A stretch of DNA of 64,000 bases. Origin: Eledone cirrhosa. Taxonomy: Eukaryota. Below are positions 40,420 to 53,295 of this stretch, piece by piece. The notes under the pieces are model-generated. The model saw nothing but the letters and a program-made list of their open reading frames with translations. It did not search any database and was not told where the DNA came from. The position numbers and the translations under genes are program-made. How positions within the stretch are numbered: position 1 is the stretch's first letter; each line of letters begins with the position of its first letter. Location: NCBI GenBank assembly GCA_964016885.1, contig CAXHJY010000276.1:1-64000 (forward strand), written 5' to 3'.

Positions 40420-40449
40420 CTGCAATAGAAAAATAAACAATAGTAAAAA

Positions 40450-41090
40450 ATGATGGTGATGATGGTGATGATGATGATGATGATGATGGCGGTGTTGGTG
40501 GGGGTAGTGTTGATGGTGGTGATGGTGATGATGGCGGTGTTGGTGGGGGTAATTGTGATGGCGGTGATGGTGATGATGGCGGTGTTGGTGGGGGTAGTGG
40601 TGATGGTGGTGATGGTGATGATGGCGGTGTTGGTGGGGGTAATTGTGATGGCGGTGATGGTGATGATGGCGGTGTTGGTGGAGGTAATTGTGATGGCGGT
40701 GATGGTGATGATGGCGGTGTTGGTGGGGGTAGTGGTGATGGTGATGATTATAATGGTAGTGGTGATGATGCTGATGACACTGATTATAATGTTAGTGATG
40801 TTGATAATGAATGATTCTGATGACGATGGTAATGAATGATTATGGTGAAATGATGATGATGGTGATGATGATGATGATGATGATGATGATGATGATGATG
40901 GTGATGATGACGATGATGATGATGATGATGGTGGTGGTGGTGGTAATGGTGATATTGATGGTAATGTTGGTGTAGATGGTGAGGTGATGATTATGGAAGT
41001 GGTAATGATTACGGTGGGGGTGTTGATTATGGCGGTGATGATGGAATTGGTGATGATAAAAGTAGGTGTGATGATGATGGTGATAATGAA
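40450..41090. repeat. (GAT/GGT)n trinucleotide-derived repeat with ~30/60-bp higher-order units
   Basis: Direct reading; intronic. Confidence 0.85.
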
Positions 41091-41439
41091 GAAAATGAAG
41101 AGAAGGAAGACTAAAGTAATTACTTTAATTATAACAAAGATATCGTAGAAATACTATTTAGTGTTTAGTACAATCCAATATAATACAACAGAATAAACAA
41201 TGTTGTGAAATGGTTTTTAAGCGACTAATTTGAGGGAAAAATAAGGAGAAACAGGTGCACGGATAGTACACGGGTTGTGCGTTTGTCATTTGCCGGGAAA
41301 CTAGTTCCTCATTAGGTTTTATAACTCCTGCTATTCTAATTTCTCGAATTATTTATACATCTAGAAGTTGCACCGCCATTTTACGTGCAACATTTACAAC
41401 ATTCAAGTAATATTTTCTTGATATAAAAAAAGAAATAAA

Positions 41440-48587: not shown

Positions 48588-51208
48588 CGTAGACTTACTT
48601 CCCTTGCTTTTATCGAGAATCTAATTGTAATACGTGACGTATTCTATTCTATAGCGATTAGGTCTTCAAAATGTTTATTATAAACATACAGAATATTTTC
48701 GAATATTCTGTGTCTATATTCACATATATATCGCTATTTCAGAGCATTCATTCCAATTTCTAATTTCTGCCGGACCGGCAACCGCTCTTTCAAACCAGTT
48801 CCTGTACACAGCTAAGTATTCTATAAGTCTCTAGCTGTGTCATTCTCGATGAAAGCACTGGATATGTAGTCCTGATGAATTCTAACAAGAATGAAACGCG
48901 TAGACTTACTTCCCTTGCTTTTATCGAGAATCTAATTGTAATACGTGACGTATTCTATTCTATAGCGATTAGGTCTTCAAAATGTTTATTATAAACATAC
49001 AGAATATTTTCGAATATTCTGTGTCTATATTCACATATATATCGCTATTTCAGAGCATTCATTCCAATTTCTAATTTCTGCCGGACCGGCAACCGCTCTT
49101 TCAAACCAGTTCCTGTACACAGCTAAGTATTCTATAAGTCTCTAGCTGTGTCATTCTCGATGAAAGCACTGGATATGTAGTCCTGATGAATTCTAACAAG
49201 AATGAAACGCGTAGACTTACTTCCCTTGCTTTTATCGAGAATCTAATTGTAATACGTGACGTATTCTATTCTATAGCGATTAGGTCTTCAAAATGTTTAT
49301 TATAAACATACAGAATATTTTCGAATATTCTGTGTCTATATTCACATATATATCGCTATTTCAGAGCATTCATTCCAATTTCTAATTTCTGCCGGACCGG
49401 CAACCGCTCTTTCAAACCAGTTCCTGTACACAGCTAAGTATTCTATAAGTCTCTAGCTGTGTCATTCTCGATGAAAGCACTGGATATGTAGTCCTGATGA
49501 ATTCTAACAAGAATGAAACGCGTAGACTTACTTCCCTTGCTTTTATCGAGAATCTAATTGTAATACGTGACGTATTCTATTCTATAGCGATTAGGTCTTC
49601 AAAATGTTTATTATAAACATACAGAATATTTTCGAATATTCTGTGTCTATATTCACATATATATCGCTATTTCAGAGCATTCATTCCAATTTCTAATTTC
49701 TGCCGGACCGGCAACCGCTCTTTCAAACCAGTTCCTGTACACAGCTAAGTATTCTATAAGTCTCTAGCTGTGTCATTCTCGATGAAAGCACTGGATATGT
49801 AGTCCTGATGAATTCTAACAAGAATGAAACGCGTAGACTTACTTCCCTTGCTTTTATCGAGAATCTAATTGTAATACGTGACGTATTCTATTCTATAGCG
49901 ATTAGGTCTTCAAAATGTTTATTATAAACATACAGAATATTTTCGAATATTCTGTGTCTATATTCACATATATATCGCTATTTCAGAGCATTCATTCCAA
50001 TTTCTAATTTCTGCCGGACCGGCAACCGCTCTTTCAAACCAGTTCCTGTACACAGCTAAGTATTCTATAAGTCTCTAGCTGTGTCATTCTCGATGAAAGC
50101 ACTGGATATGTAGTCCTGATGAATTCTAACAAGAATGAAACGCGTAGACTTACTTCCCTTGCTTTTATCGAGAATCTAATTGTAATACGTGACGTATTCT
50201 ATTCTATAGCGATTAGGTCTTCAAAATGTTTATTATAAACATACAGAATATTTTCGAATATTCTGTGTCTATATTCACATATATATCGCTATTTCAGAGC
50301 ATTCATTCCAATTTCTAATTTCTGCCGGACCGGCAACCGCTCTTTCAAACCAGTTCCTGTACACAGCTAAGTATTCTATAAGTCTCTAGCTGTGTCATTC
50401 TCGATGAAAGCACTGGATATGTAGTCCTGATGAATTCTAACAAGAATGAAACGCGTAGACTTACTTCCCTTGCTTTTATCGAGAATCTAATTGTAATACG
50501 TGACGTATTCTATTCTATAGCGATTAGGTCTTCAAAATGTTTATTATAAACATACAGAATATTTTCGAATATTCTGTGTCTATATTCACATATATATCGC
50601 TATTTCAGAGCATTCATTCCAATTTCTAATTTCTGCCGGACCGGCAACCGCTCTTTCAAACCAGTTCCTGTACACAGCTAAGTATTCTATAAGTCTCTAG
50701 CTGTGTCATTCTCGATGAAAGCACTGGATATGTAGTCCTGATGAATTCTAACAAGAATGAAACGCGTAGACTTACTTCCCTTGCTTTTATCGAGAATCTA
50801 ATTGTAATACGTGACGTATTCTATTCTATAGCGATTAGGTCTTCAAAATGTTTATTATAAACATACAGAATATTTTCGAATATTCTGTGTCTATATTCAC
50901 ATATATATCGCTATTTCAGAGCATTCATTCCAATTTCTAATTTCTGCCGGACCGGCAACCGCTCTTTCAAACCAGTTCCTGTACACAGCTAAGTATTCTA
51001 TAAGTCTCTAGCTGTGTCATTCTCGATGAAAGCACTGGATATGTAGTCCTGATGAATTCTAACAAGAATGAAACGCGTAGACTTACTTCCCTTGCTTTTA
51101 TCGAGAATCTAATTGTAATACGTGACGTATTCTATTCTATAGCGATTAGGTCTTCAAAATGTTTATTATAAACATACAGAATATTTTCGAATATTCTGTG
51201 TCTATATT
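48587..51208 (+). mobile_element. Retrozyme-like tandem array, right block: 8 full units plus 134 bp, inverted, hammerheads on plus strand
   Basis: gcgtagacttac recurs every 311 bp (48587, 48898 ... 51075). This is the exact reverse complement of the left-block unit. Confidence 0.9.
48866..48909 (+). ncRNA. Minimal type I hammerhead ribozyme (representative of 21 intact copies)
   Basis: gtagtc-CTGATGA-attct-aaca-agaat-GAAA-cgcg-TA^gacttac, with predicted cleavage after 48902. Stem I extends through ttctcgatgaaagca / tgcttttatcgagaa. Confidence 0.9.
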
Positions 51209-53295
51209 TATATATATATATATATGTATATAATATAAATATATTTATATATATATATATATAATTGTTTAAAAAAGTCCACATGGCTAAGTGTTTAGAA
51301 TATGAGTTCAAAATAGAGGTGACACAAGACAAAGACACTGGAAAAAACAGCGGAAGGACAGACAGTCATAAATAAATAGGTAGATAGATATGTTTCTTTA
51401 TTAGCCACAGGGGCACAAAAGAAGGGGACAAATACAAAGGGGGAAGTTTACATACAATGAAAACGTGTAAAATATTATCAGAAATGTAATTTAAAAGTTA
51501 ATCGATTTTCCCCAATAGAGTGAAACATTTCATATGGGTAACACATACCCCCGAAAAAAATGTGCAACCCTCATCTCCAGGAGTACGAAGAGTTTCCTCT
51601 CTTCCTCCTTTTCCCAAACCTACAGACTGATATAGAGAGAAGGCCCATTCACTCGGGCCATTCTCGCCACTTTCACCCACCGTTCATAAAACTTGCTGGG
51701 GTACAGCACCTCTCTCTCCATCCTGATCCTTCTTCCAAAGTGGTATTTGAAAAAAAGAATCAATTGTTGGCCGGAGAGAAAGGTGTGTAGGCAGAGAAAT
51801 AAATATAGGTAGATAGATAGGCAGAGAAATAAGTAGGTAGATAGATAGATATACAGATACATACATGCATACATACATACATACATACATACATACACAC
51901 ACACATACACACACATACATACATACATACATACATACATACATACATACACACATACATAATACATACATACATACATACATACATACATACATACATA
52001 CATATACACATACATATATACATTAGGGCTGAATAGATGTGGAAACATTCACATTTAGATACTCATACATACTCAAGTAGAAGTCATCGAATTCAATCCG
52101 CTCGCAACAATAAAGTGACTTTTTATGTCATGTCTGCACTAATATCTCAGGAATGAAGGTTAATAAATATAATGGTTTTTAGAAATAAGTTTTGTCTGGA
52201 AAGGAGGATTAAAATACGTGCGGGACATGCAATCACGCTCACCGAACTCTCTAGCAGCCTGTCTATGGCCTGCCTGTTTGTCTGTCTGTCTGTCTGTCTA
52301 TCTGTCTATCTGTCTGTCTGCCTGCTTTTCTATCTATCTATCTATCTATCTATCTATCTATCTATCTATCTATCTATCTATCTATCTATCTATCTATCTA
52401 TCTATCTGTCTGCCTGCCTGTCTGTCTGTCTGTCTGTCTGTCTGTCTGTCTGTCTGTCTGTCTGTCTGTCTGTCTGTCTGCCTGCCTGCCCGTCTATTTG
52501 CCTGTCTCACTCTCAGTTTGTTTATCTATTCTAATAATTGTTTTTGATTTAGGCACAAGGCCAACAATTTTGGAGGTGAGGGGAAAGTCCATTAAATTGA
52601 CCCCAGTGCGTTACTGGTAAATAATGACCTCTAATCTCTCTTATTTTCATTACCCTCTATATTTTTGCTTGTCTGTCTGTCTGCTTCTTTCTATAGATGC
52701 ATAAATAGAAGTTCAAACAGACAGTTACACAAAGTGTATTCACACACACACACACACATATTCTTAAAGCACTAAAACAACGTATCTCTAGTGGTCGACT
52801 GATGAGAGGGACTGTCCTGTGTTTTGTCCGATGTCTTCGCCCACCCTTTTTATTAATTTTCTCTCTCTTCGGTAGTTAATAAATAATGTGCCAGTCCAAT
52901 AAATGGGTCGATTCTTTCCCTTTTGATGAAATCGGTTGTGTTCAGCCCTGGAGAAGGGATGAGCTTCGCTGAGTTAGAAACCCATCAGACACCGCATTTT
53001 ATGACTGTCGCTACTCTGATCTGCTGAGGGCTAGATTATATAAATGAGAGAGGCAGAGAGGGCGTGAGAGAGTGGACACAGAGAGTGAAGATAGAAAAGG
53101 GAATTGAGAGGGAGATAGAGAGGAAAAGAGGAGTTAGAGGAGATGAGGAGAGAGAGGGAGAGAGAGAGAGAGAGAGAGAGAGAGAGAGAGAGAGAGAGAG
53201 AGAGAGAGAGAGAGAGTAAATGTGTTTGCATGTGTTCATATCTATGTGTGTGCGCATGTATGTGTATATGTATTTGTAAGAATTTAATACGTTAC

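Follow-up and report, generated by a model that had tools for sequence, protein, structure and literature searches.

A back-to-back hammerhead array in an intron of the octopod Dmbx gene belongs to a large retrozyme-like family with strictly paired ends

Results

A two-armed array in the second-to-last intron of Dmbx

We analysed a window of 64,000 nucleotides from Eledone cirrhosa (assembly GCA_964016885.1, contig CAXHJY010000276.1, positions 1 to 64,000), in which a tandem array of a small RNA unit with a predicted self-cleaving ribozyme lies within the homeobox gene Dmbx. The gene is on the minus strand, as the sequence-only reading of this DNA had it. The exon at 56077-55902, which carries the first part of the homeodomain (PF00046, E 4.5e-14), is 100% identical to the mesencephalon homeobox 1-A proteins of Octopus vulgaris and Argonauta, and most of its named matches are diencephalon/mesencephalon homeobox proteins. 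The O. vulgaris Dmbx protein, used as a tblastn query, aligned to four exons within the window. The next of them, 53296-53665 (minus strand), encodes helix 3 of the homeodomain and the linker, is followed by a GT donor at 53295, matches P0001 at 82% and occurs only once in the assembly. The last coding exon, 39941-40419 (minus strand; 92% to P0001), carries an OAR motif that scores slightly below the Pfam cut-off (E 0.0011; 19.1 bits against 20.1). A Dmbx-type homeodomain and a C-terminal OAR motif are thus both present, as in PRD-class Dmbx genes.

Between these two exons lies one that had been overlooked (41968-42126, minus strand). It is 159 nt long, is bounded by AG and GT in phase 1-1 and matches residues 241-294 of O. 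vulgaris Dmbx with 83% identity (tblastn). The array had been assigned to the last intron of the gene; since this exon follows it, the host is the second-to-last intron (53295-42127, minus strand; 11,169 nt, or 4,461 nt without the array), and the true last intron runs from 41967 to 40420. The join of 53296 to 40419, formerly taken as the normal splice, would be an in-frame skip of the 159-nt exon. This exon is phase-symmetric, and its skipping would preserve both the frame and the OAR motif. The true last intron also contains a 95-bp tandem repeat (41446-41894; 4.6 copies, 81% matches). We found no upstream Dmbx coding exon in the window or in the next 6 kb, and no second Dmbx haplotype in the assembly, where the gene is on C303, an unplaced contig 84,590 bases long.

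The array begins 2,087 nt after the donor and ends 2,374 nt before the acceptor of its intron. It was measured with Tandem Repeats Finder and by a direct walk, with unit counts as assembled, and consists of two arms that meet head to head at one shared base (48587). The arm with the long outer end, hereafter A (44501-48587, minus strand), contains 13.14 units of 311 bp and 13 hammerheads sense to the pre-mRNA, with its outer end at unit position 166 and its inner end at 123. The arm with the short outer end, B (48587-51208, plus strand), contains 8.43 units and eight hammerheads antisense to the pre-mRNA, with outer and inner ends at unit positions 129 and 307. There are no mismatches among all array units. 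The counts of 13 sense and about 8.4 antisense units in the sequence-only reading were therefore correct, and so was its duplex arm of about 2.6 kb: a perfect inverted stem of 2,622 bp with a 183-nt loop is possible, and the pre-mRNA does meet the antisense block before the sense block. On the A side the target sequence is a (TA)n tract of 1.6 kb (42897-44500), and on the B side a TA-rich tract (51209-51263); a target-site duplication is unreadable inside (TA)n. The unit has a GC content of about 0.35, the array contains no open reading frame (ORF) of 90 or more amino acids, and the B arm presents nine AATAAA motifs on the pre-mRNA strand.

Each unit carries a predicted type I hammerhead ribozyme. 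By motif there are 21 cores (13 minus, 8 plus), one per unit, with CUGAUGA, GAAA and GUA elements, stems I and II and, in the fold, a 1-bp stem III closed by a palindromic 4-nt loop. An example is the plus-strand core at 48866-48909, which has an extended stem I and a predicted cut after 48902. Rfam gave no matches for the array at gathering score, and below threshold only Hammerhead_HH9 (17.8 bits, E 0.16), so that the hammerhead is identified here by motif and fold. Hammerheads with a 1-bp stem III are said to need dimers (PMC4209133). Across 16 haplotypes of the ribozyme region (a noisy indel haplotype, L039, and also L067 were omitted from the alignment), 97.5% of cells are paired, and changes in stem I are one-sided and keep the pairing. 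No two-sided compensatory change was present in these 16 haplotypes, in which five one-sided changes keep the pairing and the shuffle control was uninformative. A U-U mismatch occupies the base of stem II in 11 of the 16, and the Dmbx copy keeps the paired base. Both strands of the unit are predicted to fold (z -5.4 for sense, -3.9 for antisense), and no hammerhead was found on the antisense strand.

The unit forms a large family of back-to-back insertions

The unit is dispersed, with at least 496 matches in a search of the assembly. Exact matches to a cleavage-site pattern put the family at 14,982 or more ribozyme sites genome-wide, a lower bound because the pattern misses 311-bp haplotypes. 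The long end followed by TA had 1,019 exact matches and the short end 1,213, part of the latter being internal. The first 100 cleavage-site matches listed, which were not selected on ends, form 16 clusters; all ten clusters with both strands run minus then plus, and extrapolation from the 16 gives a total of roughly 2,400 insertions. An estimate of about 4,500, based on exact A ends, was dropped as sampling-biased. More than 1,000 insertions of this small, predicted self-cleaving RNA element are near-identical and back-to-back, and the Dmbx array is one of them. Its own haplotype is a 311-bp unit with C at position 158, of which no offspring were found elsewhere in the assembly: the C158 motif matched at 38 other places, which are five arrays at 308-310-bp spacing and five singletons.

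For a detailed comparison we collected 79 insertions in 78 stretches: the window, 17 top unit-match loci, the first 40 long-end matches on C1 and 20 short-end matches without a listed partner, a diverged fragment at L104 having been excluded before counting. Sixty-seven are head-to-head (65 complete and two-armed, two more with one end outside the stretch). The other 12 run one way, of which four are cut by an edge or gap and eight are truly single.

Every one of the 65 complete insertions pairs an A end with a B end, with no AA and no BB, an outcome whose chance under free choice is 2^-65. The pairing is the same in the insertions not selected on ends (14/14), the A-selected (35/35) and the B-selected (16/16), and a 66th insertion was completed as A+B by joining L061 with L154. 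Outer ends of A arms fall at unit positions 164-173 (mode 166) and those of B arms at about 122-140 (mode 131), the two classes lying about 26-40 nt apart on the unit. Of the 130 outer ends, 123 were flagged as TA; the pattern used to select 51 of those ends included TA. Another five loci, obtained for a separate test, comprise an A+B insertion (L155), a single arm (L156), two that run off the stretch (L157, L158) and an exception (L159).

This regularity bears on whether the inversion could be an assembly artefact created by fold-back reads. The Dmbx contig is short and unplaced, and the structure is read here from the assembly; against this, a rule-bound structure is found at 65 loci, mostly on chromosome-size scaffolds, each with its own junction and some in insertions of less than 1 kb. 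We consider an artefact extremely improbable, and the array is a real feature.

Both arms share the locus haplotype

In 54 of the 59 cases that could be compared, the locus haplotype of one arm is also that of the other, against a mean of 4.4 and a maximum of 12 in 5,000 shuffles. The five mismatches are two indel cases (L039, L099), an alignment ambiguity (L062), a single-unit change (L074) and a block variant (L070). We counted 33 different haplotypes in 66 insertions; fixed changes between loci average 3.5 (maximum 11), and variation within arrays is 4e-4 per base. At 16 of 76 loci a change is fixed throughout the array and absent from the rest of the sample. Of the 54 testable private variants, 50 are not common to both arms. 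Recurrent changes at one site within a single arm exceed expectation (28 pairs versus 0.5, with 20 from L083) and could reflect repeated passes over one template, conversion or assembly. L083 itself (G000:C1:97461102-97469102) has a double substitution in 5 of 24 units, irregularly spaced and in one arm only.

Inner ends are scattered: their positions along the unit are uniformly distributed (chi-square p 0.20) and show no enrichment at the cut site (6/130 versus 8.4 expected), and no junction is common to different loci. Junction overlap is mostly 0-5 nt, and several junctions use the long stem of the ribozyme. A and B arms show no difference in length (p 0.12) and a weak correlation between their lengths (rho 0.22, p 0.09), and single arms reach at least 24.5 units. 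Two junctions are unusual: at L091:1448-1719, 272 nt of unrelated, GC-richer sequence is captured between the arms, and at L049:4485-4662 an identical junction occurs twice, the four arms alternating, suggesting that the template was switched locally.

These data allow us to weigh two ways of making an inverted arm from one priming event or one linear RNA. A single cDNA might fold back and be copied into the second arm, as has been proposed for head-to-head Penelope copies (PMC3846280), or both arms might arise by L1-type twin priming on a linear RNA. Folding back would account for the common haplotype and for two variants that stand in register in both arms, and overlaps of 7-17 nt at 8 of 63 junctions would suit it. 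Either arm, however, can be the longer one: B exceeds A at 29 of 62 loci, at 18 of them by over one unit. Hairpin-like centres are not enriched (7/62 versus 8.2 expected), 50 of the 54 testable private variants are confined to one arm, and folding back gives no account of the constant use of the other start site at the second end. As for twin priming, the Dmbx window happens to fit the expected adjacency, in which the inner end of one arm lies beside the start of the other (123 versus 129), but across the sample this occurs in only 8 and 6 of 63 cases, near chance. Taken as one alternative, these routes are improbable.

A dual-priming model for the insertions

We think it likely that the array is a retrozyme insertion, probably made by a Penelope-like enzyme with reverse transcriptase (RT) and GIY-YIG domains, through two cDNAs primed from both ends of one (TA)n break, and that its position in Dmbx is incidental. 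In this model, read from genomic copies, both strands of the TA tract would be nicked, and one 3' end would prime at about unit position 166 and the other at about 131-140 of the same RNA, probably via an enzyme dimer. Because A+B pairing is strict, each break end would use a different start site; because the locus haplotype is common to both arms, both would copy the same RNA or RNA pool. Each enzyme would then copy many units without a scar. Since a monomer bottleneck followed by multi-unit copying has a circle as its simplest template, this copying may be somewhat more probable than not to run around a monomeric circle, and otherwise, with clearly lower probability, along an uncleaved multimer. 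Finally, the two cDNA 3' ends would join through 0-5 nt of microhomology or through stems of the RNA itself, each priming second-strand synthesis on the other. Cleavage, circle and cDNAs are all predicted components.

The model draws on what is reported for Penelope-like elements (PLEs). One PLE enzyme, for which a dimer is predicted, can nick and extend the two strands of AT-rich DNA, and its reverse transcription starts at two internal sites whose spacing equals the 30-40-nt tail (PMC11167929); the two end classes, 26-40 nt apart, fit two such sites. More tentatively, at a confidence just short of even, the insertions may be a genomic record of Penelope-type integration itself, in which a dimer primes both ends at two fixed sites on one ribozyme-made RNA circle, followed by rolling-circle reverse transcription and annealing of the cDNA ends.

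Several observations weigh against this model or its circular form. Unprocessed RNA was the main PLE substrate in vitro, and no strand difference in start site was seen (PMC11167929). L159 has two arms whose outer ends lie at 95 and 175 and which lack TA flanks, 8 of the 79 insertions are single-armed, and TA-like microhomology at 124-140 blurs the end positions. A pure monomer circle is at odds with L079 and L103, where a single-unit variant is shared in register by both arms (4/54 testable private variants), and with the block variant at L070. Variants are repeated seven units apart at L061 and L047, so arrays can also lengthen locally. No helper element was found: elements combining RT and GIY-YIG are abundant (10,595 candidates, 150 scored), and 16 3' regions taken from 14 long-ORF GIY-YIG loci gave no alignment to the unit that stood clearly above shuffles. 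A comparison of the unit with the pLTR (pseudo-long terminal repeat) of autonomous PLEs at 45 loci yielded no clear parent.

Some of these points would be accommodated if dual priming took place but every template were linear, an uncleaved multimeric transcript from a parent array, with later lengthening and homogenisation by unequal exchange. The in-register variants of L079 and L103, the block variant of L070, the seven-unit repeats at L061 and the preference for unprocessed RNA (PMC11167929) all speak for such a template, as does the U-U mismatch at the base of stem II in most ribozyme haplotypes. It is harder to reconcile with private changes fixed across both arms at 16 of 76 loci, with the lack of any junction common to loci and with single arms of 24.5 units or more. 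Nor was a parent found for the two shared variants, whose singleton carriers are on other haplotypes. We regard an exclusively linear template as rather unlikely.

Related elements in the same genome

Four loci (L142, L146, L150, L153) represent a PLE-like, autonomous family whose hammerhead follows the RT/GIY-YIG ORF at a distance of about 380 nt. Its ends in TA fall into two classes spaced by about 50 nt, L150 being head-to-head with one of each, and no sequence match to the unit was seen among the copies compared. A sister retrozyme with a different hammerhead occurs at L110:2430-2870 and L139:97-205, with 75-82% identity over the priming region (77-82% over unit positions 60-155 at L110); its L110 copy is two-armed, with one long and one short end. 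The long and short outer ends of L110 and L150 match those of the unit's own insertions and favour the dual-priming model. At L148:6050-6230 and 7010-7200 there are two short hammerhead-bearing elements in TA tracts, one of them 75% like the ribozyme region of the unit. Within the window, decayed reading frames at 54000-54800 and 7900-8900, for which Pfam gave no informative match, resemble LINE fragments.

Consequences for Dmbx

Intron cleavage, a long duplex and release of circles are possible consequences of the sequence of the array, as is an effect on Dmbx splicing. The sequence-only reading had suggested that the antisense block, transcribed first, could silence the ribozymes. A partial duplex is possible, but eight core complements face 13 sense cores, leaving at least five ribozymes beyond antisense silencing. 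With these unpartnered cores, and with both strands self-folding, some co-transcriptional cleavage is plausible; the pre-mRNA may combine a partial duplex with five or more free ribozymes, and a reduced yield of spliced transcript could follow as a by-product. Intronic ribozymes are able to reduce splicing (PMC10919898). The antisense-first order is not particular to Dmbx. Insertions are head-to-head in 67 of 79 cases and in 10/10 two-strand clusters, and because this layout is symmetric any intronic copy shows its antisense block first, whichever the direction of the gene, so that the order holds no gene-specific information.

It has also been suggested that the array is a co-opted regulator of Dmbx, tuning full-length or OAR-less transcripts through cleavage or through a duplex acted on by ADAR or Dicer. 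The 13 sense ribozymes do lie 2.5-6.3 kb upstream of the next acceptor, the Dmbx copy retains the paired base of stem II, and the intronic ribozyme of CPEB3 affects its own mRNA (PMC10919898). The lack of divergence among 21.6 units, however, implies a very young insertion, its layout is generic for the family, and with the extrapolated insertion number some insertions into introns with long TA tracts are expected. Only one of nine Xenopus retrozyme dimers was cleaved in vitro (bioRxiv 10.64898/2026.07.22.740005). Nothing points to domestication of the Dmbx array, and we judge a co-opted regulatory role highly unlikely.

Discussion

The Dmbx array appears to be a young insertion of an abundant retrozyme of the non-LTR (long terminal repeat) type, with a 311-nt hammerhead RNA unit. 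Metazoan non-LTR retrozymes are described as dispersed copies of low-GC tandem units about 300 bp long, each with a type I hammerhead and a short palindromic helix III, in which no long ORF was found (PMC7229834; bioRxiv 10.64898/2026.07.22.740005), and the family studied here is alike in sequence in all these respects. Its unit length and GC content fall within the 150-450 bp and below 45% that define retrozyme tandem units, and it is a dispersed multicopy family without coding capacity. Metazoan retrozymes are proposed to be mobilised by PLEs via circles (same sources), and rolling-circle copying of retrozyme circles has been proposed, not shown (PMC7229834, PMC4209133). The difference lies in arrangement: the sources describe direct tandem repeats, and the word 'inverted' occurs 0 times in the text of PMC7229834, whereas the insertions here are mostly head-to-head with fixed paired ends in (TA)n.

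Endonuclease-bearing PLEs offer another parallel, with an inverted 5'-truncated copy, a one-sided 30-40-nt tail, TA/AT-rich targets and a hammerhead upstream of two internal start sites (PMC8557442, PMC3846280, PMC11167929). The present element is instead non-autonomous and has up to at least 24 identical units per arm, and the PLE tail, often or optionally one-sided (PMC8557442), contrasts with strict pairing in 65 of 65 insertions. The self-priming model for head-to-head PLE copies (PMC3846280) fits poorly here. The way in which PLEs finish integrating, and the reason for their inverted copies with a tail on one side, have been called unresolved (PMC8557442, PMC11167929).

Two other systems share single features with the array. 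In LINE-1 twin priming both target ends prime on one RNA, giving an inverted 5' segment, and the insertions studied here would resemble it in this. They differ in having no poly(A) end, a fixed second site, inversion as the rule and arms that are not adjacent on the template. Conserved intronic ribozymes are a second case, among them HH9 and HH10 of amniotes. The ribozyme of CPEB3 is likewise a self-cleaving motif in an intron of a neural gene (PMC10919898); all of these are single and conserved, unlike the young multicopy mobile element in Dmbx, which shows no sign of conservation.

Retrozymes, their link to PLEs, the inverted PLE copy with an often one-sided tail and (TA)n targets (PMC8557442) are already known. 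In the literature searched, which was incomplete and excluded supplements, we came across neither head-to-head retrozyme arrays nor a strict pairing of start sites. The insertion rule is the interesting result, and a regulatory reading of the Dmbx copy is unlikely. A strict rule of one site per end, together with a single template per insertion, makes sharp predictions for an in vitro PLE assay, and the model of a circle copied by a dimer would, if true, unify the PLE tail, the head-to-head structure and the tandem arrays of retrozymes.

The array says more about the mobility of the element than about the regulation of Dmbx, where this copy matters mainly as a possible mutagenic allele. Cephalopods show heavy A-to-I editing, and the family places many perfect kilobase hairpins in a cephalopod genome. 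If the model of a circle copied by a dimer is true, hundreds of octopod introns would have been seeded with kilobase hairpins and live ribozymes.

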